From Syntrophales bacterium (GTDB taxonomy: Bacteria > Desulfobacterota > Syntrophia > Syntrophales > PHBD01): a stretch of DNA of 64,000 nt. The stretch is taken from the NCBI GenBank assembly GCA_963668175.1, contig OY764159.1, positions 192,001 through 256,000 on the forward strand, given 5' to 3'. The notes beneath the pieces were generated by a model. It was not told where the DNA came from, did not search any database, and saw only the letters and a list, made by a program, of their open reading frames with translations. The position numbers and the translations under genes were made by a program. Each line of letters begins with the position of its first letter. The stretch's first letter is position 1. Shown here piece by piece: positions 27,425 to 40,642 of the stretch.

Positions 27425-27501
<77 letters not shown>

Positions 27502-27607: not shown

Positions 27608-27695
27608 GCCGGAGTGGTGAAACTGGTAGACGCAGGGGACTCAAAATCCCCCTTTCCTTGCGAAAGTGTCGGTTCGATTCCGACCTCCGGCACCA
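27608..27695 (+). tRNA. tRNA-Leu (CAA)
   Basis: GCCGGAG...CTCCGGCACCA; anticodon arm GGGGA-CTCAAAA-TCCCC; long variable arm. Confidence 0.97.
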
Positions 27696-27758: not shown

Positions 27759-27788
27759 AAATGGCGGAAGTGCATGGGAATCGAACCC
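27759..27788. repeat. att core, distal copy (duplicated tRNA-Sec 3' end)
   Basis: AAATGGCGGAAGTGCATGGGAATCGAACCC, identical to 40542..40571. Confidence 0.96.
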
Positions 27789-27834
27789 GTACCCACCAAA
27801 AAATCCCCTATGAATATCAATAGTTTCCACGCCG

Positions 27835-28959
27835 TTATTTTGCGTCGGGCAGTTTTCGGGCAGTTTGTATTGTATGAACCCTTCCCATTAAGGCGCGTTT
27901 CCGCTCAAGCTCCACGTCGGCATATTTCAAGACGCTGTCCCGGCGTCTGTGATCGGTAAGCATCTGAAGCTCATCGATGGTCCCCCCTTGCTCATTGATG
28001 AACTGTGAACAGGAGCTATGCTTCAGGCCCGCATACAGGTTTATCGTTTCCCCGGTCGTTTCACACGCCTTATTCCATAAGTCCACAAGGTAGTCATGCT
28101 GATAGTGCTTGCCCTTCAACCGGCTATTCGGATTTACGAAAAAGTACGGGCTGAATGTTGTCGGCATCGCTTCCATGATCTTCTTAAATTCCGGGTGGCG
28201 GGGGATTTCATGTTCTTTGTGGGTTTTCGTGTATTCCACAAGTTGCTTGCTTGAGAATGTCCGCCTGATTGTGAAGCAATCCCGGACCGGGTCGTAATCC
28301 TCTTTGTGGAGCGCCATGGCTTCAGACGGCCTGCGAAGATGATACTTTAGCCACCAGAAAATCGGTTGGTGTTCCTTTGGGATGGCTTCGATGATCTTGA
28401 TTTGCCGGTCCTCAGAAATCCATTTAATCTTCTTTTCTGATATGCCGTAAAGCCGCCGTTCAGGGAACGGGGGAACGGCCAAGATTCTTTCTGCCTTCCA
28501 CGCGTAATCTAGGCAAGCTCTGAGGCAGTACATAACGTTGAGCTTCCCCTTGCCTGTCCTCTTAATTCCGGCAAGTAGGCTGCACAGGGTATCATAGCGG
28601 ATTTCATGAAGCTGATAGGGATTCGCTTTAAACCACGGTATCAGGTGATTATTGATCGAGTTCAGGTAATCCTTATGCGTCGCCGGGGACAGTGTCGATT
28701 CGACGGCTACAAGCCATTCTCTTAGGTAGGGGATGGTATCCACCCTTTGCTCAGTATATTTCTCTATCCTGAATGAATCGGGGTTCGCCTCAAAATCATT
28801 CTGGATAAGGGCAAGCAGTTTATGTGCTATCTGCTCGCCGCTAAGTCCGAAGACCTCGCCATCCCTGCAAAGATGGCCTTTATAGCGATATACCTTGTAG
28901 TCGCCCCATTGGACAAAATATCTGTCCCCGTCTTTTCTGTATTTGACGCGACCTTTCAT
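27835..28959 (-). CDS. Tyrosine recombinase / integrase
   Basis: SPAT..DY core-binding region, LRRPSEAMAL, LKHS, and DH...VLKYA; adjacent to att. Start assumed at MKGRVK. Confidence 0.9.
   Translation of the reverse strand: MKGRVKYRKDGDRYFVQWGDYKVYRYKGHLCRDGEVFGLSGEQIAHKLLALIQNDFEANPDSFRIEKYTEQRVDTIPYLREWLVAVESTLSPATHKDYLNSINNHLIPWFKANPYQLHEIRYDTLCSLLAGIKRTGKGKLNVMYCLRACLDYAWKAERILAVPPFPERRLYGISEKKIKWISEDRQIKIIEAIPKEHQPIFWWLKYHLRRPSEAMALHKEDYDPVRDCFTIRRTFSSKQLVEYTKTHKEHEIPRHPEFKKIMEAMPTTFSPYFFVNPNSRLKGKHYQHDYLVDLWNKACETTGETINLYAGLKHSSCSQFINEQGGTIDELQMLTDHRRRDSVLKYADVELERKRALMGRVHTIQTARKLPDAK
27846..27866. repeat. Putative integrase arm-type sites, left end
   Basis: CGGGCAGTTTTCGGGCAGTTT, identical to 40488..40508. 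Confidence 0.8.
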
Positions 28960-29195
28960 ACACAGTCCCCCCGGTTGAGTTTGGCGGACTGTAACATACT
29001 TCGCCGGACGATTGTTGAATTTTGTCAAATCATGACGCACCTCCAAGAATTTTCATTTTCAATCCGTTTTCATTTAGATTGTCGATACAGGCCCGAAGGG
29101 CCGGGGGGTCAAGGGGGGCTCGCCCCCCTCTACAGGTTCTTCCGTTTTCACCGTGGATTTTCTCCGCCATCAAAAGAAGCAAGCGCCACCCTGAA

Positions 29196-29380
29196 GATGT
29201 CAACTATGATGTCAACTGAAGGTCTAGTTGTATGTCAACTTTCATCTCAAGACCGTTTTAAATATGTTAAATATAATTAACTTGTTGCAATTAAGTTGTA
29301 TATCAACTTGTCATGCTTTAAGGAGTATCAACTGTTAGTTGTACTCTCCCCCCTCTATAGGGGAGTACAACTTACAACTC
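29196..29380. other. Putative replication origin of the island (iterons, AT-rich core, hairpin)
   Basis: Repeated (T/A)CAACT and AGTTG units in both orientations, AT-rich core, 10 bp inverted repeat 29337-29372, directly after the helicase stop. Confidence 0.6.
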
Positions 29381-30724
29381 GCAATCGTCAGGGGCTTCCT
29401 TCTGCCCGTACAAGTCTTCCCCTTTTCCGGTGAAAATATATTTTCCCCTGCCTGCTTCGGTGTCCAATTCAATGAGGCCATCTTCAACCGCCTTATCCTT
29501 AATCCGTGAAATGTAGGCTTTGTCCTTTTTCAACTCGTCGCCGATTTCCTTTTGGCTGTAACCCTGACCGAGCATCCAGATGACCTTGCCCTTAACCGCG
29601 CCGGTTGCGTTGTTGACTTTAGTCGTCTCCGTCATCCAAGCGAGACCGTTATTATCCGAATCTATCAATCGGAAACCGAAGGTGGCCGCGTCCATACCGC
29701 TTATACCCCTGGTTTTGGTGAATTCGACCGTGAGTCGGCACCCTTCTTCCGGCCTGTAATCTTTGGGGCGTGAAAGAAATATAGAATAGTCAACAGAATC
29801 CTCACGGCCCGAAGTGCCGCGCTGGGCGACCTTTTTATAATCCTTTCCTGAATGATGTACGATAATGACGGATATTCCCAAGAATCGGATGGAGAGAAAG
29901 AATTGATTTATCGGGTCGTATTGCTCTTTGGAATTCTCATCGATTCCCGGCGACAGTGCCGACAGATTATCAAAGACAACAAGCTTGATGTCCGACTCTT
30001 TGAGCGTTGTTAGAATAGCTTCACGGTGTTCCGCCCTGGTGAGGTTCGGTGCCGGGAAGCCTCTGTGGTGCATCATCTCGGCTGAAATGATCTTGAGAGG
30101 GTGTACCGGATCAGGGAGGCCCTTGAGAAGCCTGGCATATCGGCCTTGAAGTTCTGCTAGAGGCATTTCTCCGTCGATCAAAGCGCAGGGGACAGGGGTC
30201 TCTACTCTCCATGGGGCAAAGCCTTGATTATGGGTAATCGCAATAAGCAGGGAGAGAATGAAATTTGTTTTTCCGATACCTCGGGGGGCTGTTATCAAGG
30301 CTATATCGCCAAATTTCAGCCAAGGGGCAACGATCAAAGGACGGCTCGGAATATTCATGGACAAGAAATCATTGCCCGTTATAATTGCACCGCGCAAAGC
30401 GTCAATATAGGTCCCGGCATTATCTGCCATCATGACGGGGCTATTCCATTTATCAAACTGCAAGGCTGTCTTCGCTTCATCGTCTGTGTGTCCTTGCAGC
30501 ACCAGAGACTCTTTAGCCGTATTGAGCAATAGTCCCCTGGTTTCTGCATGAGTCGATTGTTCTATCCGCTTTAGGAAATCGGGCAAGGTATCGGGCGAGA
30601 CCCTTCTCGCAAATTCTCCGAGTGTGATCGTGGCGATTTCATCCGGGCGGACGTTAAAATCCTCACCCTCTCGCCATCCATCATCCATGGGGTTTGCGGT
30701 TTCTATTGTAACGGGCTCAGGCAT
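29372..30724 (-). CDS. AAA_25 / RepA-like SF4 helicase with C-terminal HTH
   Basis: Walker A APRGIGKT, IDGEM, Walker B VVFDNL, VHHSGK, QRGTS and FTKTR motifs. Confidence 0.85.
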   Translation of the reverse strand: MPEPVTIETANPMDDGWREGEDFNVRPDEIATITLGEFARRVSPDTLPDFLKRIEQSTHAETRGLLLNTAKESLVLQGHTDDEAKTALQFDKWNSPVMMADNAGTYIDALRGAIITGNDFLSMNIPSRPLIVAPWLKFGDIALITAPRGIGKTNFILSLLIAITHNQGFAPWRVETPVPCALIDGEMPLAELQGRYARLLKGLPDPVHPLKIISAEMMHHRGFPAPNLTRAEHREAILTTLKESDIKLVVFDNLSALSPGIDENSKEQYDPINQFFLSIRFLGISVIIVHHSGKDYKKVAQRGTSGREDSVDYSIFLSRPKDYRPEEGCRLTVEFTKTRGISGMDAATFGFRLIDSDNNGLAWMTETTKVNNATGAVKGKVIWMLGQGYSQKEIGDELKKDKAYISRIKDKAVEDGLIELDTEAGRGKYIFTGKGEDLYGQKEAPDDCEL

Positions 30725-30727
30725 TGG

Positions 30728-31432
30728 CTATGCACTCCTTTCATTTGTAACCATACAAGAAAGAAGGAAGACGTATTCCGCCCTGGTCCGTCCGTTCCTT
30801 GGATTATCGATGAATGTCTTTGCTCTCATTCTCAATCTCTCCAATAGGAACGCCCTGTATGCCTCATCCATCTGCGTCCCACTCCAAACGTGGAGCGCCC
30901 AATAAACCGCGATGGCTGTCAAATCATGTTCAGCTTCTCGCTCCGTGATGCACCATCGATGTCTGGCGTTGATAGCTTCCAGTAATTTAGGAGAATACGA
31001 CTTGAAGTCCCTGAAATTGGCAAACAACACGTCAAGAGAAGGTTCACAGGCGGGGGCAGGCTGTCCGGTGAATACGGCAAGGGGTCTGGCAAATCCTGTC
31101 CATAGAAGTGATTCTGTGAAGCTATGCGCAAACGCGTTCCGATGGTGCAGAATCATGTCCCGGAAGTTTTCTTGACCATGCCAAAGCTTGATTACTCCAA
31201 GCGAGACGCCCGTTTCTTGCGATATCTCACGCCGGGATAAATTATAAAGGGTTAATAAAGAGGCGTGGTATTTATTCATGGGGAAATCGATCTTTTGCCC
31301 TCTCGGGATTCCTTTCCGTCCACGCGGCTGATAAAATTTTAAGGATATTTCGATAAACTGACTCAAAGAAGTTTCTTCTTCATGTGCATTCACTTTTTCA
31401 GAAAGAGCGTGATCCGGCCGCTGTGCAATCAT
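30728..31432 (-). CDS. Hypothetical protein with HTH
   Basis: LSRREISQETGVSLGVIKLW helix-turn-helix pattern; ATG at 31432 after GAGG. Confidence 0.6.
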   Translation of the reverse strand: MIAQRPDHALSEKVNAHEEETSLSQFIEISLKFYQPRGRKGIPRGQKIDFPMNKYHASLLTLYNLSRREISQETGVSLGVIKLWHGQENFRDMILHHRNAFAHSFTESLLWTGFARPLAVFTGQPAPACEPSLDVLFANFRDFKSYSPKLLEAINARHRWCITEREAEHDLTAIAVYWALHVWSGTQMDEAYRAFLLERLRMRAKTFIDNPRNGRTRAEYVFLLSCMVTNERSA

Positions 31433-32033
31433 GTTGCCACCTCTTTTATTTTTGATATTGATGTCCATTTTAGAAGTCAGGATATTCATATCCAAGTGGT
31501 AATTTTTTTGAGGGGTACTTTTTTTCGGCAGCGAATGGGGGATGACTAATTGATTATCTGCTGGATGGACGAATGGAGTAACGGGACATGATGGCGCGGA
31601 CGATGACGAAGAAGTCCTTCAAGGCAATCTTATCCCTAGCACCTATAAACGTATTTATCGTTGATGGATAATTTAACGGATTTCAGGCGTGCCGATTGTT
31701 GAGGGGATAATCTATTGGCTAGATGTCTGATCGACCAAGGAAGAGCCGTTCTGTGGTCGTCGGTATCGGTTTGGATGAGGGAGCATTGGTATCATTGAGG
31801 AACGTCACCGACCACAATGACTATCATTGCCGGGGCATCTGACCACGTTTAGCAGCTATTCTGTTATTCCGGTTTCTTCGTATGCCCTGACCTATGCTTG
31901 CCTTCAGGGTTCAATTAAATCTTTTTAGATTATTATAACCCATCCTAACTTAAAGTCAGGCTAGTGTTCGAGGAGATGGTCAATCTTTGGTTCTTCCTGT
32001 CCAGCAAGCGAGCCTCCCGGTTCATTGGGGCAA

Positions 32034-33590
32034 TCAACGGTATTTAATATCCCCACGTTTTATAAGCTCTAATAGATATTGAAAAATGTTCTTCAGGTCA
32101 TCTTGAAATTCCGACGCCACCAGAAATAACGTCAATAAAATGAGAATCAACGTCATCCAAAAGATCCCTCGTTGCAAGCTGATATTTGTTTTAGATAGTC
32201 TATCATTGGATATTGCAGATGTTATTTGAGCTGTTCTATTGGCAATTGAATTAACTTGTTCCTCGCCTTTTTGCAGTTCTAGTACAAGCATCAAAAGAGT
32301 CTCACGTAACCCATTAAAAAGGCCCTTTTCTCTCTTTCTATGTTCAGATATCGGGAAAAACTCATAAACCTCATTTAGGAAATAATTTTTATTTTCACAT
32401 AACGGAATAACTTCTTGAATGAATGGGGTTAAATTGCGTTGAAGATTAAGGAATTTATTATCAAGAATCCGCGCTTCTGAGGCTGCCAAATCAAAATTGC
32501 TAAATTCAAGAGAACCATAGGCGTCTCTCAACATGCCAAGTTGTTTTTCGTATGTTCGTGCAAGCACGAATAGAACCCATTTTCCAATAGTCTGGTCAAA
32601 ATGCGTTAACCATTGCAATATTTGATCTTCCCTATCGTCAGGTCCAAAACGTTCGAGGTCTCTGTCATCAAGAATTCCCGATATATTACCGGATAGGACT
32701 AAATTGTCTGTAGCTTCCGTAATCTGCATGAATAACCCCTTTATTTGAGGACTTTTCCATGCGTAGAAATCATAAGCAAGATGCATTACGGATAAAAATG
32801 ATTTTCTCGAAGATTTCTTTTCTATATAAGGTTCATTCTCCTTAAAAAAAATAATCTCACATGTCGGAAAGGATTCTCCATATTGTCCGGAAGCATACAG
32901 GCCGGGAAAATTATTCTTAACCCATTCGGTGCAAAGTGATCGCGTTGATTCACGTGCTAGTTTTACAGATAACTCTTTTTGATGAATGACATCTTGATAG
33001 CTCCGCCCCCCTCGTATTTTTTCTATATAAGTTGAGTAGGTATTTCTGAGGGATTGCTCTATCGCGTTTGCGTTGTCATCGTTTAGGAAGAATTGGAAGA
33101 CAAGAATGGTCGTGCTTGATATGTCTTGAAGGATTGACGCGTGGATAGCCTCGATCCCTTCGGGCAAATCAGCTTGACGATTCCTGTATAAAGACTGACT
33201 AGAATCTCTCACAATATAGCCTAAGTTAAGCCACCCTCCACCGGAAAGACTGTATCGCATATTATCAACTGAATCTAAGGAATCTGGATTAATAACTCTT
33301 TCGCTTTGTGACCAATTCAGTTTTTCGATGGAGAGTTTTAGACTGGCGATAAAAGATGGCGGAAAAACTTCAACAACCCAGATGCATGGCATCCTGATCT
33401 GTTCGGTAAGAGGAGGGCTTGATGCCAAGTTATCTTCTGGGTCAATCATGGAATGATAATGTTGTAAGTGATTATCAATTTTAATACTATTCATACTCTT
33501 CCCGCTGATCCCAGCTTTTAAAATTTGTTCCGCACTTAACATGGAAAGAAAAACGTTGAATTGCCCTACCTCAAAATCTATAACACACAT
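32034..33590 (-). CDS. Hypothetical AT-rich cargo protein with C-terminal coiled coil and TM helix
   Basis: 518 aa ORF; C-terminal GIFWMTLILILLTLFLVA; start codon uncertain. Confidence 0.75.
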   Translation of the reverse strand: MCVIDFEVGQFNVFLSMLSAEQILKAGISGKSMNSIKIDNHLQHYHSMIDPEDNLASSPPLTEQIRMPCIWVVEVFPPSFIASLKLSIEKLNWSQSERVINPDSLDSVDNMRYSLSGGGWLNLGYIVRDSSQSLYRNRQADLPEGIEAIHASILQDISSTTILVFQFFLNDDNANAIEQSLRNTYSTYIEKIRGGRSYQDVIHQKELSVKLARESTRSLCTEWVKNNFPGLYASGQYGESFPTCEIIFFKENEPYIEKKSSRKSFLSVMHLAYDFYAWKSPQIKGLFMQITEATDNLVLSGNISGILDDRDLERFGPDDREDQILQWLTHFDQTIGKWVLFVLARTYEKQLGMLRDAYGSLEFSNFDLAASEARILDNKFLNLQRNLTPFIQEVIPLCENKNYFLNEVYEFFPISEHRKREKGLFNGLRETLLMLVLELQKGEEQVNSIANRTAQITSAISNDRLSKTNISLQRGIFWMTLILILLTLFLVASEFQDDLKNIFQYLLELIKRGDIKYR

Positions 33591-33726
33591 AAGTTAGAAT
33601 GGTGTCATTTTCTTATCGATTACCAATTAAAATGTAGTACGAATTGTCCGGCTCAATACACAGCAGTTCAGGAAGTAAGTCACGGCCCGTAATTGCCGTC
33701 ATATCTGCCGTCAAGAATGTCTTATC

Positions 33727-33966
33727 TTACGCCACTTCATCCTGACCGGTTCTTTCGTCGGTTAGCCCGTTATATCTTTGATCCGTTGTCGTAGGTGTGG
33801 ACGTTCTACTGAGAAATGACTGCGGCATTTGAATACACCGTCGATCTAATATTTGCCCCTGTTTGTCGATCCTTGCTACCATAACAAGGCAAAGCGGATC
33901 GTCTGTGTCCGGCTTGGTCGGCTGCTTCTGAATGCCGCTCAACTTGTTGTCCGGATCATCGCTCAT
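33727..33966 (-). CDS. Small hypothetical protein
   Basis: 79 aa; AAGGGG upstream of the ATG; co-oriented with neighbours. Confidence 0.4.
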   Translation of the reverse strand: MSDDPDNKLSGIQKQPTKPDTDDPLCLVMVARIDKQGQILDRRCIQMPQSFLSRTSTPTTTDQRYNGLTDERTGQDEVA

Positions 33967-34006
33967 AGATACCCCTTGTGGTTCGCTTTTAATATACCGC
34001 GTAGCG

Positions 34007-34246
34007 TCAGCGTTTCAAGTAAGGACATTTATCCGCTTGTTGGCAAGCTGCCATAGCCATTTCTCGTTCTCGTTGCTCCTTTTTTGCATCTCGTTTTCGT
34101 CTCTTAGCCATTTTTTCCTCAAACATTGCTAAGGCTGTTGGGTCCGGTGGCCTCACTTGTTTCAGTATAAGTTCCAGCACCACCCCCATAACGTTCAATT
34201 TCTGTTCGATCCTGTCCAAATCTTCCCTGCTGATTTCTTCCGACAT
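34007..34246 (-). CDS. Small coiled-coil hypothetical protein
   Basis: 79 aa; GGAG RBS; charged helical C-terminus. Confidence 0.55.
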   Translation of the reverse strand: MSEEISREDLDRIEQKLNVMGVVLELILKQVRPPDPTALAMFEEKMAKRRKRDAKKEQREREMAMAACQQADKCPYLKR

Positions 34247-34283
34247 ATCGCATCTCCGTATTCTATTCCACAGTGTAGAGTAT

Positions 34284-35336
34284 TTACTTTTTCAAAATTG
34301 CCTGAATTTTGTCCTTTGCAATGTTTTCTTCTACCGGTGTGATTGCGAATGGTCCCGCATCGTCGCCCCTTATCCGTGATTCTACGAATTGACCTACAAG
34401 CCCTCCCATTCCCGCAACGACGTTTCCGGCGCGCCGGGACACCTCGAAATAATATGTCTCTCCCGCTTTCGCATCGAAAGTTCTCGCGTGGTCCCCTTCC
34501 GCCATCTTGCCTTTGATGGATATCGTGCAAGTCCCCGGGCTGACGATCATGTAATCAGTGCCAGTCCTGTCAAGGTTTGCGACGATTTCATCATTGATGT
34601 ACACCACGACTTCTCTGCCGATAGTCGTCAGGAAATAAGAATCCCTGAACAAAACCACCTTTGCCGTAGGCATATCTTTACGGGCGTCGGCTATCGCCTT
34701 TTTGATTTCGGTGGCTACGTCCGTTTTCTGATAATATAACGCCCATGCTAATGGCGTATAGCCTTCCTTGTCTTTTGCATTCAAATTTGCGCCCTTCTTG
34801 ATTAACAACTGAACGATTTTAATGTTTGCAGAACACTTGACCGCATTCACAAGAGGGGTCGCGCCCATCCATTCCCTAGATTCAATATTTGCACCTCTGT
34901 TCAACAGAAGCTCGACTATGGCATAATCGCTGACAGCTATCGCATAATTGAGAGGTGTTGTTTCCGTCGAGTCCCTTGTTTCTATGTCCGCGCCCCTGTC
35001 CAGCAAGGCATTCACGATTTCAATCTGCTTGTAATAAGCTGCGTGATTCAAGGCGTCACATCCGGTTTTGTCCTTCACTTTTATATCTGCCCCGTATTCA
35101 ATGAGGCGTTTTGCCACCGCCGTCTTCCCTGCCCATATAGCGTGCATAAGAGGAGTGGCCCCGTGTTTCTTGTCAGGCTCATTGATATTGGCACCCTCTT
35201 TGATGAGCTTTTCGGCGGTTAAGGAATCGCCTTTCGTTGAGGCATCAATCAGCGGTGTCTTCGGGACGGTTGCACAGCTTGTAATAATCAATAATGTTGC
35301 GGCCATTAATACGAGAAACAGGTTGCTGTTTTTCAT
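34284..35336 (-). CDS. Ankyrin-repeat lipoprotein with C-terminal DUF2846-like beta domain
   Basis: Lipobox ITSC; about six TPL..A...G.DIN repeats; C-terminal AKVVLFR...VYIN...PG...AGETYYF. Confidence 0.85.
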   Translation of the reverse strand: MKNSNLFLVLMAATLLIITSCATVPKTPLIDASTKGDSLTAEKLIKEGANINEPDKKHGATPLMHAIWAGKTAVAKRLIEYGADIKVKDKTGCDALNHAAYYKQIEIVNALLDRGADIETRDSTETTPLNYAIAVSDYAIVELLLNRGANIESREWMGATPLVNAVKCSANIKIVQLLIKKGANLNAKDKEGYTPLAWALYYQKTDVATEIKKAIADARKDMPTAKVVLFRDSYFLTTIGREVVVYINDEIVANLDRTGTDYMIVSPGTCTISIKGKMAEGDHARTFDAKAGETYYFEVSRRAGNVVAGMGGLVGQFVESRIRGDDAGPFAITPVEENIAKDKIQAILKK

Positions 35337-35617
35337 TATTTTACACCATCATTGTATTATTATTATGTTCTAAGATTTAATATTGTATAGAACAATTTAT
35401 CCGGGATTGCCAGTTGAAAGCATGTCTGCCAATAGAAATCCTAACAGTAGGGGTCGCTTTGCAAACCATCTATGCTGGCGTCGGAAGGGATGTCCAAATG
35501 CATATCGTTCTTATCACTTTAGTACGACGACAAATGATGACAAAATTGACTTTGAGCCGTTGGTTGATCGGCATGTCTGGTCGTCATATATAAATAAATT
35601 TCTGTGAGGTGGGATAA

Positions 35618-36424
35618 ATGGGTGGCGTAGCTGCTGTTGCTGACAAATTGGGTCTTGAAGATACCCCTGTTGGAGATATTCTCGAAGGGGCGACCGATTT
35701 TGTTCATTCTGCCGGTACTGGCGGGCTTTCCGATGCTGTACGCGCCTACGACGAATATCAGAGCGGCGACGCCACGGGCATTGAAGCTTTGGGGAATTTT
35801 CTTGACGAAGCGATAGACCCGGGCGACTCAGTTGATACGCTGGCTAAGGCAACGAGGGACATTCCTTCATCCCAGGCCGACAAAGAGGAACAACAGAAAT
35901 GGGCCAAGAATGTTGAGGTTGGAATCGGGGCGGCGGGCAACCTGGTTGGCGGTCCAATTGTGGGCGCGCCTGCCGTGGGTTTCACTTCCAAAATAGCCGG
36001 GGAACCGTCCTATATAGGTCAAATCAAGTCTGCCCTTACTGCTGGCGGGTTTTATGGCGGACAAGTTATTGGCGCAGGGGTAGGAGACGTTGCCAAGGAA
36101 GCAGGAATAGGCGGCGATGCACTTAAATATATCAGCAATGCGGGCGGCGCAATAGGTGGAAGCGCCCTTAAAACGGGAACAGCCGCCATTGCTAATGCCG
36201 CGTTGAACTCCGGAACGGCCTCTTTGTCGCCCAAAAGTGCCATCGAGAACCCGTCCGACGTAGACACTTCCCAAACGGCCACATCTCAGGTCGCGTCCAA
36301 TGCCGTCAACGATACAGAGAAGCAATTAAAGAATTACGGCGTCACCCGCGGGGCAATTGGTACAGGGACAATGTACAATCCGAAGATCGGCCGAATGGTT
36401 GGTGGCTACAGGATTGCAGCATAA
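35618..36424 (+). CDS. Gly/Ala-rich glycine-zipper protein, phage virion/DNA-ejection-like
   Basis: 268 aa, MGG start, GxxxG repeats, no signal peptide. Function is inferred only. Confidence 0.55.
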   Translation: MGGVAAVADKLGLEDTPVGDILEGATDFVHSAGTGGLSDAVRAYDEYQSGDATGIEALGNFLDEAIDPGDSVDTLAKATRDIPSSQADKEEQQKWAKNVEVGIGAAGNLVGGPIVGAPAVGFTSKIAGEPSYIGQIKSALTAGGFYGGQVIGAGVGDVAKEAGIGGDALKYISNAGGAIGGSALKTGTAAIANAALNSGTASLSPKSAIENPSDVDTSQTATSQVASNAVNDTEKQLKNYGVTRGAIGTGTMYNPKIGRMVGGYRIAA

Positions 36425-36435
36425 AGGCATCGGTA

Positions 36436-37125
36436 TTAAGATCGCCTCCTTTTTCTTTCAATTCGATCTTCCAGGTAAGCAACTATTTGTTGCACCATGT
36501 TAAGGGCCGTCTCCTCGCTCATAGTCTGCCACTTGACGGCATTGAGATGATCAAATGATCCAAACATACGATCAAATGCAGTCTGGAATAATGGATCGAC
36601 CGGTGCAGGACCTTTCTTCTCCACCGAAGGCTTCTTTGCCTCCGGCTCCTTTGGCTTCGTAATTTTCTCAGTTTGTTTCTCCGACACCACCTCCTTCTTT
36701 TCTGTGATCATTTCCTTGACTACCTTTTCTACATGGTTGGCCGTGACTTTACCGTTAGGAGCGGTTGACTTAGCTTTTTCCCATGCTTCTGTTCGCTGTT
36801 CCGGGAGAAGTTTCGACAAGGGGCGAACCTGGAATTCTGTGATCCCTTCAGTGGAACCGGACGGTTCCACTTGACCAATTATTGCCGAAGAAGCTATTAG
36901 CCGATTTGCATGCTGCTTGGTTATGCCCCACTCAGCCTTGCAGTAAGCCGGGAAAGTTTCGTATTTTCCCCCGTTTTTTTCTTTAAACAGTTCGTCTGCT
37001 TTAATCTGCAATAATGCCCTGCCTACCTCACAAAAGGATTCAAAATTTTTCTGTATGATTCCTTCTAGCCGTTCAAGTTCTTTCGTTCGTGAAACCACAA
37101 CTACTTCATCACTCATGCCGCTCAA
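36436..37125 (-). CDS. Phage-type hypothetical DNA-binding protein
   Basis: 'F.EVGRALLQIK...YETF..YC..EWGI....ANRLI' resembles a domain often found N-terminal in phage proteins. Confidence 0.65.
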   Translation of the reverse strand: MSGMSDEVVVVSRTKELERLEGIIQKNFESFCEVGRALLQIKADELFKEKNGGKYETFPAYCKAEWGITKQHANRLIASSAIIGQVEPSGSTEGITEFQVRPLSKLLPEQRTEAWEKAKSTAPNGKVTANHVEKVVKEMITEKKEVVSEKQTEKITKPKEPEAKKPSVEKKGPAPVDPLFQTAFDRMFGSFDHLNAVKWQTMSEETALNMVQQIVAYLEDRIERKRRRS

Positions 37126-37824
37126 CCTCCAATTCTAATCCGCTTGCAAATCCGCAATATTACTTCACAAAAAACACGTACTCCCCGTCAATCAGCCGAT
37201 ACCGCATCCCGTTCATCTGGGCAAGTCGCCGGGCGTTCTCCCGCTTGTGGGAATGATTATATCCGACAGGGTATCTGGGGTTATCCGGCCGGCGACCGAG
37301 ACCGAATTGTGGAATACGGTGGACACAATCGCGAAATTAATCCGTATTTCCCATTTTAAAACAGGGAGCTTTATAATAATTGTCAATGACTCATCCCTGT
37401 TTTGCAACTATCCGAGCAATCTTTTTGCAATCTTTTTATTCTATATTGATACATAAAATCAGGCAATTAGACCGATACGATTATTTGTCAATGTTGCCGC
37501 CTGCGCAGGTCGTGTCCGGACCCTTTTTTAGATAACGGATACTATAGACAACGCCCGGAATATTCTGTCATTTTAGATTTTAGATCAATCGGTTGTGTAC
37601 TTGTCACCAAATTATGCAATGTATCTTGCAAGTTATTTTGAATCTTTTATGAAATTTTTCCGTAATTTTTCCCGGTGCCCCAGTCCTGGAGCCGGACGGC
37701 CCCCCGGCTGGATGAATTCCGAAGCCCCCCACCCCTCTTATCGACTTGACGGGGCAAAAAGGGGGGTAAGGGGTGTCAGGGCGACCAATTGAGGGGCTAG
37801 TGACGATCAGCTAACGGTGCTCAG

Positions 37825-38115
37825 TCAGCCTTTTCTCAATGCCATGAATGCGGGAAAACGGGAAGGATTGAGACTAATGAACTTGTTTAACCCCTCAAAA
37901 ACTCTGGCGATATCGGATATATCCATTACCTTGCTCAATTCGTACAATGCCGTCTCGTGTTTCTTCACAAGATTTATGCGCCTTACAAACACTTCGGGCG
38001 GTACGTCGGGCGGATTCCATGATTTATTTTCTTGTCCTTTCGCTGCTTCCATTTCCTTTGCCATTGCCATTCTCTTTGCTCCTTTCAGCATTTTGATATG
38101 TTGAGGATCATGCAC
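37825..38115 (-). CDS. Small hypothetical protein
   Basis: 96 aa ORF downstream of the HTH gene. Confidence 0.5.
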   Translation of the reverse strand: MHDPQHIKMLKGAKRMAMAKEMEAAKGQENKSWNPPDVPPEVFVRRINLVKKHETALYELSKVMDISDIARVFEGLNKFISLNPSRFPAFMALRKG

Positions 38116-38164
38116 GGCTACGCGCCCGGTTATGGCAAGCGGTCATGATCCTTCTGCGCTACTG

Positions 38165-38365
38165 TCACTGCCGTTTGAGGAAATCAATCAAATCGGCCTC
38201 GTCAATCAGGTATTGCTTACCGATACGCTTGGCCTTGAGCTTCCCATCCTTGATATACGTGCGGATGGTAACTTCGGTAAGGTTCAATTTCTGCGATATC
38301 TCCCGGACCGTCCACAGCTTTAAACTGCCCACTTCAATAGCCGTCATCGTATCCCCTCCCTTCAT
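38165..38365 (-). CDS. Excisionase-like HTH_17 DNA-binding protein
   Basis: TVREISQKLNLTEVTIRTYIKDGKLKAKRIGKQYLI; real start is probably MTAIEV, after GGAGG. Confidence 0.88.
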   Translation of the reverse strand: MKGGDTMTAIEVGSLKLWTVREISQKLNLTEVTIRTYIKDGKLKAKRIGKQYLIDEADLIDFLKRQ

Positions 38366-38547
38366 TCAGACTTTTGCACTATGGTGCAAAGCTTCTTCAT
38401 TAATTCCCCCAGGGGGGAAAAGTACCGTCTGCCGTATAATTTGCCGTATCAGATGTGCGCAATTGCGCACAAATCGAAGCCCTATCTTGTATATCCGGTA
38501 TCCTGCCGCGCCCTTTGAGCATGTCTTGTCGTTCTGAATCCGGTCGT

Positions 38548-39234
38548 TTAATGAACAGCTGTAGGGCTGAATTGCTTGCTGTAACTGGCTTTCAGGGTTC
38601 TTAGGTCCGTGTTGATCGCCTTGTGAACATACCCCAGGGATAGCCCCAGGCCCCGTGATATCTCCCGGTAAGTTTTCCCCTCTGCGTGAAGCCGTTTCGC
38701 CTTCTTGATGGCCTTCATTTGGTCGGGCTCTTCCACCAATTTCCCGTCCTCAATCTTGAAGCCGTAGGGGATGTGTCCGCACCATTGCCCCTGACTCTTC
38801 TTATGGGCCAGCGCGTCACGGGTCCGCTCTGCTATCAAGTCCCGCTCCATTTGGGCAAGGGCCGACAGGATTGTAAGAAAGAACTTGCCGGTCGCGCTCT
38901 TCGTGTCGATTCGTTCATTGATGCTGTGGAAGGCTATTCCCTGCTTTTCAAGCCGATCTATGATGTTCAGCGTATCGACGGTGTTCCGGGAGAGGCGGTC
39001 AAGTTTGTAGACGATGACGGATTCGGCTTGGCCCTCATCAAGCAATTTGAGCAAACGAGTCAGGCCTTCACGGTTAAGGGTTTTGGCAGAACGCCCTTCA
39101 TCCCGGATTATCTCCACGAGGGATAGGTTGTTCAGGTCGGCATATGCCTTTATCTTCGCTTCCTGGTTGTCCAAGGAAACGCCCTCGCGGCTTTGCTCTT
39201 CCGTGGAAACTCTTATGTAGCCTATGGTCTTCAT
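38548..39234 (-). CDS. Serine recombinase (resolvase family)
   Basis: GYIRVSTEEQ (catalytic Ser), SAKTLNREGL, VYKLDRLSRN, ERDLIAERT and PYGF motifs. Confidence 0.93.
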   Translation of the reverse strand: MKTIGYIRVSTEEQSREGVSLDNQEAKIKAYADLNNLSLVEIIRDEGRSAKTLNREGLTRLLKLLDEGQAESVIVYKLDRLSRNTVDTLNIIDRLEKQGIAFHSINERIDTKSATGKFFLTILSALAQMERDLIAERTRDALAHKKSQGQWCGHIPYGFKIEDGKLVEEPDQMKAIKKAKRLHAEGKTYREISRGLGLSLGYVHKAINTDLRTLKASYSKQFSPTAVH

Positions 39235-39549
39235 ATTTTCGCCTTTCTGGCTTTATCTGTCATTACGGTGGTGATTTTGGATTGTGTTGGTCAATTCTAT
39301 GAAAAACAATATGACACATACAATTGACTTTGTCAATATATTATTTGACTATATTTGATTGTATATAGCTGTATTATTTTATTTGTAAGATGAAGGGTCG
39401 AAACCGAATAATGTTTGGATGACAATTATGAAATAATGCATTGATAATCGTATGAAAATATTGTAGTCAAATCCTTACCAATCTGTGAAAATCTTTCCAA
39501 TTATTATAAATCGTTCCCTTCTTAAAAGAGAAAATCTTTGGAGGTAAAT

Positions 39550-39891
39550 ATGAAACGCGGCATTTTGATCAAAGATACCAGCGCGTTCTTAATCATCATG
39601 ATAATAACGATTGTAATAATCGGACTGATGCTGGCTTGTGCCAGCGGGCCTCAAACCAGAACGGTATGGTCTAGACCTAATGCTACGCAAAATGAGTTTG
39701 CCAAAGATAAATATGATTGTATGCAACAATCACAGCAAAGGCGATCTGCTTCAACAGGTGCATGGTGCTACGGTTATTATTGCGATCCTGGCGGTTCCTA
39801 TAGCACAGTTGTAACGAATCCCGATCTCTTTAATGCCTGCATGGAAGCACGCGGATGGAGTTCTCGTAAAGAGAAGATACAGACGGATTAA
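39550..39891 (+). CDS. Small Cys-containing lipoprotein
   Basis: Lipobox MLAC; W.RPNAT...F.KD.YDC and FNACMEARGW motifs; GGAGG RBS. Confidence 0.7.
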   Translation: MKRGILIKDTSAFLIIMIITIVIIGLMLACASGPQTRTVWSRPNATQNEFAKDKYDCMQQSQQRRSASTGAWCYGYYCDPGGSYSTVVTNPDLFNACMEARGWSSRKEKIQTD

Positions 39892-39912
39892 GGGGCAGAT
39901 ATCGACTTCCTC

Positions 39913-40467
39913 TTGACATTACTGAACAAATTCATTTTCCACTGGACACCTTCAAAATCCCTCTGGGTTGGAGGATACACCTTACTGTGGGATGCCCGTT
40001 GTTCCGGCATTTACATAGGATTCGGCATTAGTGTTATATATCATATTTTTAACAATCGCCGCACATCGGCCATTCCGCCAGCACCTATCATCTTTTTTAA
40101 CGCCTTGATGTTTGCCGCTCTTCCCGTAGATGTGTTCACCATAATATACGGATTGCGGGAACCATCAAATGACATTAGATTTTTCACCGGACTGCTTTTC
40201 GGGTCTTCTGTTTGCGTTTTCTTATACCCCGCCTTTGTCGCTTTAACCCTCAATAATACTCAACCGGTGTCTGCTCTTCCCTCGGCCCGAATTGCGCTTT
40301 TGCATTATCTAATCGTTGCATTGGCTGCAATTATGCTAAAATGGGATACTATATTTTCCTATCTGCTCCTTTGGACATTCTCGATGTTCGGGTTTCTCGG
40401 TATGCTCCTCATGATCGGCATAGGGTTGTGGAAACTCATTTGGAAAGTGCTCAAAAGGGATTGTTAA
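39913..40467 (+). CDS. DUF2085-like membrane protein
   Basis: ARCSGIYIG and SNDIRFFTGLLFG motifs; several TM helices. Confidence 0.7.
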   Translation: MTLLNKFIFHWTPSKSLWVGGYTLLWDARCSGIYIGFGISVIYHIFNNRRTSAIPPAPIIFFNALMFAALPVDVFTIIYGLREPSNDIRFFTGLLFGSSVCVFLYPAFVALTLNNTQPVSALPSARIALLHYLIVALAAIMLKWDTIFSYLLLWTFSMFGFLGMLLMIGIGLWKLIWKVLKRDC

Positions 40468-40478
40468 CCAAATAATGC

Positions 40479-40508
40479 CGGGCAGTCCGGGCAGTTTTCG
40501 GGCAGTTT
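40479..40508. repeat. Putative integrase arm-type sites, right end
   Basis: Three CGGGCAGT units; 40488..40508 is identical to 27846..27866. Confidence 0.8.
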
Positions 40509-40544
40509 CAATATGGAATATTATTCAATGATTTCAATATAAAA

Positions 40545-40642
40545 TGGCGGAAGTGCATGGGAATCGAACCCACCTGGGACGGTTTTAGCGCCCCACACCG
40601 GATTTGAAGTCCGGGAGGCCCACCAGTGACCTTGGCACTTCC
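40545..40642 (-). tRNA. selC: tRNA-Sec (TCA)
   Basis: 98 nt GGAAGTGC...GCACTTCCGCCA with an 8 bp acceptor stem, anticodon arm CCGGA-CTTCAAA-TCCGG and a long variable arm. Confidence 0.96.

Follow-up and report, generated by a model that had tools for sequence, protein, structure and literature searches.

The 64,000-nt stretch of contig OY764159.1 analysed here (the window) belongs to a Syntrophales bacterium whose genome is assembled as a single contig of 4,567,304 bp, and it contains at positions 27759-40571 one discrete integrative element of 12.8 kb, which is inserted into the tRNA-Sec gene (selC) at its 3' end and has intact-looking ends. The element is probably, though well short of certainly, an integrative island in which an integrase gene (int) and a replication gene (rep) are combined with cargo, making it a cargo-carrying sibling of satellite-like elements. 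This reading follows from three observations, namely that phages share the integrase and attachment (att) module of the element, that elements carrying genes for a small terminase (terS), a large terminase (TerL) or a capsid share its helicase family, and that the element itself is without such genes. Elements of this general type, i.e. tRNA-integrated int-rep-cargo islands, are already known. What appears to be new, judging from sequence comparisons, are phage contigs with a related integrase and the same 24-nt selC core, two of which share AACTGCC arm repeats with the element at matching positions. An earlier note on this DNA, made from the letters alone, had proposed a helper-dependent phage satellite, and we now regard phage-satellite status as doubtful.

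Element limits and integration module

The tRNA-Sec gene was located at 40545-40642 on the minus strand by ARAGORN, with which Rfam concurred (RF01852, 77.4 bits). As the earlier note had stated, the element is bounded by an exact direct repeat of 30 nt (27759-27788 and 40542-40571), which spans the T-arm to the CCA end and comprises the last 27 nt of tRNA-Sec, including the encoded CCA, plus 3 nt. Exactly two copies of this repeat exist in the genome, and by our own arithmetic the chance expectation for such a 30-nt repeat in 64 kb is about 2e-9. The left copy (27759-27788) is the attL core, a displaced tRNA-Sec 3' end, and the attR core (40542-40571) lies inside the intact tRNA-Sec, the two forming one feature at 40542-40642 on the minus strand (ARAGORN, repeat search, Rfam). 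The flanks have a G+C content of 0.51-0.58 compared to 0.37-0.52 within the element and hold housekeeping genes (AmiA-like, MFS, RsmE-type methyltransferase and RDD), and the element occurs once in the genome. Taken together, the exact repeat, the drop in G+C, the housekeeping flanks and the single copy identify 27759-40571 as the true outer limits of the insertion. The element was missing from all 40 relatives compared, which belong to other genera and included no empty site from a near relative, and the only sequences that it has in common with them are the tRNAs and a piece of int 101 nt long. The hallmarks of a tRNA-integrated island were hence found here, i.e. duplication of the tRNA 3' end at the opposite boundary, an integrase at one end, a deviant composition and absence from the compared relatives.

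A pair of further tRNA genes, tRNA-Ala and tRNA-Leu (27426-27501 and 27608-27695), is situated 64 bp outside the left end of the element. Relatives have selC on another contig than this pair or at a long distance from it, so the local tRNA cluster is particular to this genome.

Open reading frames (ORFs) were scanned in Pfam (20 ORFs), PHROGs (17), and NCBIfam and PADLOC (14 each). The tyrosine integrase, RepA-like helicase, excisionase-like helix-turn-helix (HTH) protein and serine recombinase named in the earlier note were each borne out by profile matches, which are given below with the respective genes. The integrase (27835-29046, minus strand; phrog_1, 7.5e-24), whose start may be an internal Met at residue 30, appears to be selC-specific. 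A virome search as proposed in the earlier note was productive for this protein, returning five uncultured phage contigs of 31-48 kb from IMG/VR, and all five of their integrases aligned with it over the full length at 51-60% identity (about 50-60% in the scan), with the motifs around the catalytic Tyr kept. Of the 14 element proteins, the integrase (5/5 contigs) and part of a 229-aa protein (1/5) are common to the element and these contigs. One of them (L013; locus labels are ours) is a real phage, in which portal, primase-helicase, ParB-like, exonuclease, resolvase and terminase-like genes flank int on both sides, and a tRNA search in the four phage loci scanned found none. Every one of the five contigs contains an exact 24-28-nt match to the selC core, located 17-447 nt past the int ORF (four of them at 17-40 nt) and in the same orientation relative to int as in the window, the invariant part being the 24-nt centre of the attL core. 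Judged from sequence and position, these matches are the attP sites of the phages.

Putative arm sites for the integrase were found on both sides of the core. The P-arm repeats (27846-27866) are two tandem 11-nt units (CGGGCAGTTTT; AACTGCC on the int strand) that overlap the 3' end of int, and the P'-arm repeats (40478-40508) are three units of CGGGCAGT(TTT), whose offsets match those of the AACTGCC sites that L013 and a second phage contig, L017, have downstream of the core. An exact 21-mer made up of two 11-nt units has two copies in 4.57 Mb, one just inside each element end. Relative to the core, AACTGCC has the offsets -63, -74, +44 and +55 in the window; the corresponding values are -69 and +49 for L013 and -79, -68 and +49 for L017. 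Across 13 sequences its density was 1.54 per kb near cores compared to 0.12 per kb elsewhere. The motif was not found in the other two phage loci examined or in any of eight islands examined in related genomes, and its presence in some loci only suggests that the arm sites co-vary with sub-lineages. For the element, a complete attP layout of P arm, core and P' arm is thereby predicted, and the int/att module looks phage-type and intact. The identical cores, the two arm-repeat sets and the full-length int gene also agree with the intact-looking ends described in the earlier note.

Alternatively, the element could be what decay has left of a prophage whose integration at selC was carried out by the present integrase. 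Phage contigs of 31-48 kb indeed contain the closest integrases that have the same attP, the 229-aa protein has phage kin as well, and the coding density is low, at about 77% by our own estimate if all listed ORFs are genes, with spacers of 300-700 bp. On the other hand, phage matches were limited to the integrase and the part of one protein mentioned above, the Pfam and PHROGs scans revealed no structural, lysis or packaging gene, not even as a fragment, and the att cores, arm-repeat sets and int ORF are undamaged. Furthermore, four relatives are complete int-linked islands of 4.7-6.9 kb with two cores, too small for prophage wrecks. Such an origin is thus highly improbable.

Replication module and its relatives

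The gene next to int encodes a RepA-type AAA_25 helicase (29372-30724, minus strand; PF13481, 9.8e-25). It has an HTH at the C-terminus and, at the N-terminus, a private region of some 120 aa; its matches to PHROG primase/helicase families were confined to the helicase portion of these. Its relatives number 287 at E ≤ 1e-5, with eight of full length at 43-46% identity, and many are fused to primase domains of the zf-CHC2, Prim-Pol, AEP (archaeo-eukaryotic primase), DUF3854 or NrS-1 type. RepA is the only element protein that recurs in 40 RepA loci from the genome collection, and among 80 metagenome RepA loci one (L069) also has a homologue of the neighbouring HTH protein and another (L072) one of the 229-aa protein. 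One locus (L018) combines an HTH gene, RepA, HTH_17 and int within approximately 6 kb, while two (L020 and L028) have int and a primase-helicase gene (pri-rep) followed by a terS-like gene (phrog_2538, 1.4e-8). In two others (L019 and L068), int and pri-rep are accompanied by a major capsid protein gene, with an adjoining tRNA in L068, and in L069 and L070 (= L021) pri-rep occurs with TerL. Searches with RepA gave one partial match in 72,556 plasmid records and one weak match in 50,697 isolated-phage records; in IMG/VR the single protein was without a match, and a family search yielded only relatives at 30-40%.

The elements in L068 (1-8779) and L019 (9299-18031) are about 8-9 kb long and consist of an integrase, a RepA-family primase-helicase and a major capsid protein, supplemented by an AlpA-like HTH and a flanking tRNA-Asp in L068 and by a tape-measure-like gene in L019. 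They are candidate capsid-forming satellite-like elements of uncultured Desulfobacterota-type bacteria.

An HTH protein translationally coupled to repA (30728-31495, minus strand; stored form 234 aa, from the Met at residue 22) is a candidate origin-binding protein or regulator. It has 362 remote relatives, and its AlphaFold2 (AF2) model is all-helical with a predicted local distance difference test (pLDDT) score of 83.5. With this model, Foldseek found no match in PDB or BFVD at E ≤ 1e-3, terminases included, and its best hits were weak and TetR-like. Members of the family do weakly match terS-type HTH families (8/50 for PF10668 and 7/50 for PF13022), whereas the protein of the element matched no family, terS-type ones included. 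In hhalign comparisons the family reached a probability of 56% over 55 columns with the terS-like protein of L028, and no relation emerged with the unknown int-proximal proteins of L018, L020 and L028. Three of 338 other genomes of the class hold the family, and homologues occur in the int-linked islands L062, L063 and L069, in the first two of which the gene lies beside int together with AlpA, a DnaD-like loader, DnaB and TerL. A search of IMG/VR with ten family sequences matched 58 patterns, of which none was confirmed.

The spacer between repA and int holds an iteron-like array and a hairpin (29196-29376), which from position and repeats would be a candidate origin and/or operator. Allowing at most one mismatch, TATGTCAACT has four copies within 113 bp (29196, 29208, 29231 and 29299), which are its sole matches in 64 kb; the iterons can also be written TGTCAACT. 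A 16-nt AGTTGTATRTCAACTT occurs twice in the same spacer, and a 17-nt inverted repeat lies at 29333-29376, where AGTTGTA/TACAACT inverted half-sites and the hairpin are also located. The origin-like array of the earlier note is thus found again in the four near-exact copies, though it is a modest one.

With these parts, a life cycle of the element can be proposed. The tyrosine integrase would recombine the core identical to the tRNA-Sec 3' end, guided by the tandem AACTGCC arm repeats on both sides of it, and the direction of excision would be given by an excisionase/AlpA-type HTH protein of 66 aa (38165-38365, minus strand; PF12728 HTH_17, 1.6e-11; TIGR01764, 2.4e-10; phrog_66 'excisionase and transcriptional regulator', 9.4e-8). 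The excised circle may then replicate from the iteron-like array by means of the coupled HTH protein and the AAA_25 RepA-type helicase. Multimers could be resolved by a small serine recombinase of resolvase/invertase type with a C-terminal HTH (38548-39234, minus strand; PF00239 Resolvase, 2.2e-45; phrog_125 'DNA invertase', 8.9e-54), upstream of whose gene a TTGAC/GTCAA inverted-repeat cluster identified by repeat search (39281-39347) is a candidate res-like site. The cargo carried along would comprise two membrane proteins, one of CorA fold and one of DUF2085 type, as well as an ankyrin lipoprotein and several small unknown proteins.

The same set of genes might instead belong to an integrative mobilisable element, moved through an unrecognised origin of transfer (oriT) by the conjugation machinery of another element. 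An integrase and an excisionase accompanied by a replication gene and no transfer genes fit many mobilisable islands, and AAA_25 is presumably the family of the RepA helicase of the mobilisable IncQ plasmids. However, relaxase, coupling protein and type IV secretion system (T4SS) domains, as would mark integrative conjugative or mobilisable elements (ICE/IME), were absent from the ORFs in Pfam and NCBIfam scans, in which oriT was not searched for. RepA relatives are moreover nearly absent from the plasmid records, and the kin of all backbone parts are linked to phages and not to conjugative elements. Mobilisation of this kind is therefore judged very unlikely.

Related selC islands and phage satellites

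Relatives of the integrase at E ≤ 1e-40 and 34-71% identity were found in 23 of the 338 other genomes of the class (24/339 when its own is included), 22 of them at 56% or above, giving 24 matches outside its own genome. ARAGORN located tRNA-Sec in five of eight inspected loci, and in four of the eight two core copies delimit an element, with 5,339 bp between the copies in L180, 6,919 bp in L181, 4,725 bp in L182 and 5,176 bp in L184. In at least four of these loci the neighbour of int is a gene of replication type. The gene beside int encodes a RepB_primase-PriCT-AAA_25 protein 38% identical to RepA in L183, a DUF3987 primase-helicase in L185, a protein with a weak RCR-Rep-like match (1.2e-5, under the cut-off) in L184 and a counterpart 45% identical to the latter in L182, an AAA_24 ATPase in L186, and in L180 and L181 a shared unknown protein (59% identical to each other). 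The cargo of these islands includes PARP and SecB, ParE, Dcm/Vsr/HNH, OLD-family nuclease, Schlafen/ResIII, TIR and TPR proteins, which by sequence is likely to be defence or toxin-antitoxin cargo, and selC looks like a defence-island hotspot in the class. The element of the window follows the same plan as these small selC islands with a longer cargo. It probably belongs to a modular pool of such islands in the class, in which int/att is kept, a replication-type gene usually lies beside int and the cargo is variable.

Coordinates were recorded for part of this cargo, i.e. PARP-like and SecB-like genes at L182:14119-15381, Vsr, HNH and C5 methylase genes at L184:4792-6753, an OLD-family nuclease at L183:10357-12303, Schlafen/AlbA_2 and ResIII genes at L185:5282-9880 and a TIR/SEFIR protein at L179:6999-8150. 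Two layouts of int were also observed. In L179, L180, L181 and L186 int adjoins the intact tRNA-Sec and converges on it, whereas the window, L182, L184, L185 and the five phage attPs show the other layout, with int at the far end and co-directional with the tRNA. The core is consequently inverted relative to int between the two sets.

The enterobacterial selC islands, such as LEE and SHI-2, have the same target gene and a far-end duplication of the tRNA 3' end. They are mostly tens of kb in size, carry P4-type integrases and are without a replication module. The integrase of the element is of a different family, as its Pfam scan gave no Arm-DNA-bind_3 and no Phage_int_M match.

No match to capsid, portal, terminase, tail, lysis, relaxase or T4SS families was obtained in the scanned ORFs (Pfam, PHROGs, NCBIfam, PADLOC), as the earlier note had observed for most of these, and matches to terS, capsid-remodelling, HNH or packaging genes were likewise absent in Pfam and PHROGs, although small ORFs of unknown kind remain. 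The P4-like genes psu, delta, sid, epsilon and the alpha primase-helicase were not among the general Pfam/PHROG matches, dedicated P4 profiles not having been run. Phage_capsid, TerL_ATPase, Phage_portal, Terminase_6N and GpA_ATPase had no match in the entire host genome, which thus contains no recognisable resident helper, though a helper might come from outside. With neither a terS, capsid-remodelling or packaging gene in the element nor a recognisable prophage in the host genome, the proposed helper dependence was not upheld.

According to the SatelliteFinder paper, the core components of phage-inducible chromosomal islands (PICIs) consist of an integrase, an alpA/merR/stl regulator, a primase-replicase, capsid morphogenesis genes and terS, and its authors rate three-component 'Type C' elements as ambiguous, these being perhaps defective, mobile elements of another kind or aggregates formed by chance (PMC10085698). 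The element resembles the PICIs described there in its size (approximately 10-13 kb), integrase, candidate AlpA/MerR-type HTH, putative replication gene, terminal direct repeats and absence of tail and lysis genes. By sequence, it would have at most three of the five components (integrase and, putatively, AlpA-type HTH and helicase), of which the HTH_17 protein, as the putative regulator, lies beside the serine recombinase. The element differs from PICIs in having no terS or capsid-morphogenesis gene and in a gene order in which 9 kb separate the HTH from int and the transcription of rep runs towards int, in keeping with the unusual order pointed out in the earlier note.

A further model could be the minimalist islands termed PICMIs, which show that a satellite can lack hijack genes and for which PF12728 is accepted as AlpA (PMC10803314). 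The element would share with them an int, an AlpA-type HTH (PF12728) and a replication gene without capsid-remodelling genes. PICMIs differ in being about 6 kb long, lying next to fis, encoding a DUF3987/DUF5906 primase and in their demonstrated packaging, in the form of concatemers, by virulent Vibrio phages (PMC10803314); the element targets selC instead of fis, and no DUF3987/DUF5906 primase was found in it.

By this analogy, the element may be a minimalist helper-dependent satellite that is packaged by a helper via a pac/cos signal or a small unrecognised factor, the helper perhaps being a phage of the L013/L017 type. Its size, int, AlpA-type HTH (PF12728) and replication gene would all be compatible with such a lifestyle, and PICMIs indicate that hijack genes can be missing from a satellite (PMC10803314). 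In addition, the int/att module and the arm motif are common to real phages, the 229-aa protein has an int-proximal homologue in L013, RepA-family genes adjoin terS (L020 and L028) or share small int-linked loci with TerL or capsid genes, and the coupled HTH family weakly resembles terS HTH families, as described above. Against these points stand the absence of any packaging-related match in the element and of common phage families in the host genome, the lack of any family or terminase match for the HTH protein of the element itself, and the IMG/VR results for RepA. The cargo, moreover, is of envelope type and not aimed at phage interference, and PADLOC gave no defence system, its only matches being ankyrin-repeat ones, a weak mad8 match on RepA (0.0039) and a mad1-type HTH match on the excisionase-like protein. 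The three-component 'Type C' class, into which the element would fall, is itself considered ambiguous, as noted above (PMC10085698), and the analogous cargo-carrying tycheposons discussed next were unseen in viral fractions according to that study (bioRxiv 10.1101/2020.12.28.424599). On balance, a helper-dependent satellite is a possibility to be held tentatively. What stands of the original proposal is that parts of the element have kin in satellite-like elements with terS, TerL or capsid genes, and what does not is a packaging gene or more than three PICI components.

These parts could also be combined into a more specific scenario, in which the element is the first of a minimalist phage-satellite lineage in Desulfobacterota-type anaerobes. 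Here, a superinfecting or induced temperate helper of the L013/L017 kind would excise the element in trans via the shared selC core and the Int arm sites, and replication would proceed through the HTH protein and RepA. The HTH protein, as a distant cousin of small-terminase DNA-binding domains, would mark the DNA for the packaging motor of the helper, and the CorA-fold membrane protein would be abortive-infection cargo. We consider the scenario unlikely.

The best analogy for the element and its satellite-like relatives is offered, in our view, by the two classes of tycheposons, cargo-carrying and PICI-like. Tycheposons are described as having a tRNA-targeting integrase at one of the ends and, optionally, a replication module beside int, with the two classes sharing int and rep modules; PICI-like tycheposons, with terS or a capsid gene, were abundant in viral fractions, while cargo-carrying ones were not found there and were enriched in vesicles (bioRxiv 10.1101/2020.12.28.424599). 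In its architecture the element seems similar to the cargo-carrying class as portrayed there, with an end-located integrase targeting a tRNA 3' end, an adjoining replication module, cargo and no virion or conjugation genes. In both cases int and rep modules would be shared with PICI-like siblings that carry terS or capsid genes, and populations can be mixed for the presence of the element. The comparison covered architecture; tycheposons are defined by their own integrase lineage and hallmark profiles, and the element differs in phylum, in its tRNA-Sec target and in its AAA_25 helicase without primase. Its integrase also faces outward to the nearest att core, in contrast to the inward-facing integrase described for tycheposons (bioRxiv 10.1101/2020.12.28.424599). 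Phage capsids would be a doubtful guess as the route between cells, the remaining options being vesicles, transformation, mobilisation or no current transfer.

Sequencing data bear on the presence of the element in the population. Four runs from a single sample contained the whole element, and the same strain was present at low depth in a fifth one (X5) belonging to another study; all five consist of k=31 contigs. In one run (X1), the depth of the element contig (27759-40565) was 55.7 compared to 59.3-60.2 for the flanks (93%), while in another of the same sample (X2) it was 19.3 compared to 30.1-31 (64%). The drop in X2 is a weak hint that one third of the genome copies are without the element, i.e. 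loss or excision. Flank and element pieces in X5 were without differences and derive from the same strain, not from an independent transfer. The only raw-read run (X6) did not contain the organism (7 reads at 90-95%), and no RNA run containing the element was listed.

A number of points weigh against the interpretation of the element as an active cargo-carrying sibling of satellite-like elements. Its integrase reached 24.3 bits with Pfam Phage_integrase, under the cut-off of 27.1, and the HxxR box reads KHSS throughout the family, so catalytic competence is assumed from conservation only. The excisionase-like gene is 9 kb away from int, beside the serine recombinase, and the origin, initiator and resolvase roles are assigned from position and repeats. 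RepA was found to have no primase domain, and its alignment with solved structures gave no match. The depth gap between element and flanks in X1 and X2 may reflect coverage bias instead of population heterogeneity, depth being no measure of the share of cells, and the absence of attB and attP junctions is uninformative because the 30-bp repeat leaves neither junction a unique 31-mer in k=31 contigs. As to the relatives, the eight loci were chosen among the 24 matches for sufficiently long contigs, and the integrase relatives come mostly from draft or metagenome-assembled genomes. Finally, any other locus carries at most one or two of the 14 element proteins, which makes this a modular family and not a conserved element.

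Cargo, remaining features and significance

Upstream of the replication module lies the gene for the CorA-fold membrane protein (32034-33590, minus strand; 518 aa, stored form 486 aa; G+C 0.37-0.40), for which 12 relatives were found at 38-68% identity, all without a name. A single C-terminal membrane helix is predicted, and the AF2 model (pLDDT 82) matched CorA in Foldseek with E 3.3e-4 and a probability of 0.99, at a TM-score of 0.19-0.25 (0.2-0.3 across aligners). The top hit of the VIA wide search was the CorA cytosolic domain 5n77_A (Z 8.6, root-mean-square deviation 4.8, 189 residues aligned), barely above the helical background. The CorA fold is thus moderately supported by the model. 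It is followed by two ORFs of 79 aa (33727-33966 and 34007-34246, minus strand) with no family match of note in Pfam, PHROGs, NCBIfam or PADLOC, and by the ankyrin-repeat cargo protein (34284-35336, minus strand; Ank_2, 4.5e-43), which has a lipoprotein-like N-terminus and a C-terminal DUF2846 domain (3.3e-7; 30.7 bits, under the cut-off of 34.3). At the other end of the element, on the plus strand, are a 117-aa cargo protein whose start reads as signal/lipobox-like (39538-39891) and the DUF2085 membrane protein (39913-40467; PF09858, 1.6e-16). Together with the ankyrin protein, these two agree with the envelope cargo listed in the earlier note.

A 268-aa Gly/Ala-rich ORF (35618-36424, plus strand) is a putative gene, and both it and a 96-aa ORF (37825-38115, minus strand) were without a family match in Pfam, PHROGs, NCBIfam and PADLOC. 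Between them is the gene for the 229-aa protein (36436-37125, minus strand; phrog_4571, 3.4e-8), which is probably DNA-binding. Its similarity to the int-proximal gene of L013 amounts to 56% identity over 52 aa, and a relative in L072 adjoins a RepA-family primase-helicase; ten relatives, all without a name, were found in a further search. The phage-type hypotheticals mentioned in the earlier note rest on this single protein. An AT-rich non-coding spacer of 700 bp (37126-37824) contains short tandem repeats (Tandem Repeats Finder rows at 37416-37781). A promoter and terminator scan counted 28 promoter-like sites (20.8 expected) and 15 terminator-like sites (14.0 expected), and only tRNAs exceeded the Rfam thresholds.

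Within the same spacer, an abiF RNA motif at 37725-37767 on the plus strand scored 32.1 bits (E 0.018), below the gathering score of 37. An inverted repeat of 36 nt with 72% complementarity (37347-37382 and 39498-39533) brackets the segment of the 96-aa ORF and the two genes for the excisionase-like protein and the serine recombinase, and TTGTCAAT-type motifs are found at both borders of this segment (37377-37388, 37482-37493 and 39330-39337). The segment 37347-39533 could be an invertible or excisable cassette, or the repeats could merely be AT-rich promoters. The 36-nt repeat was rejected as a pair of invertase sites, as its exact part is 13 nt long and AT-rich, with about one such match expected by chance in the region.

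A single island adds little in itself, and the picture surrounding it is more useful. A narrow literature search found no paper combining 'phage satellite' and 'Desulfobacterota', and the core, the arm motif and the iterons are concrete sites for bench work. Within one class of anaerobes, a selC-specific integrase and attP seem to be common to full phages, to 5-7-kb defence or toxin-antitoxin islands and to a 12.8-kb cargo element, with the replication gene beside int being swapped freely among the selC phages and islands. This pattern would mirror, in an unrelated and poorly studied group, the story of tycheposons and PICIs in marine cyanobacteria.

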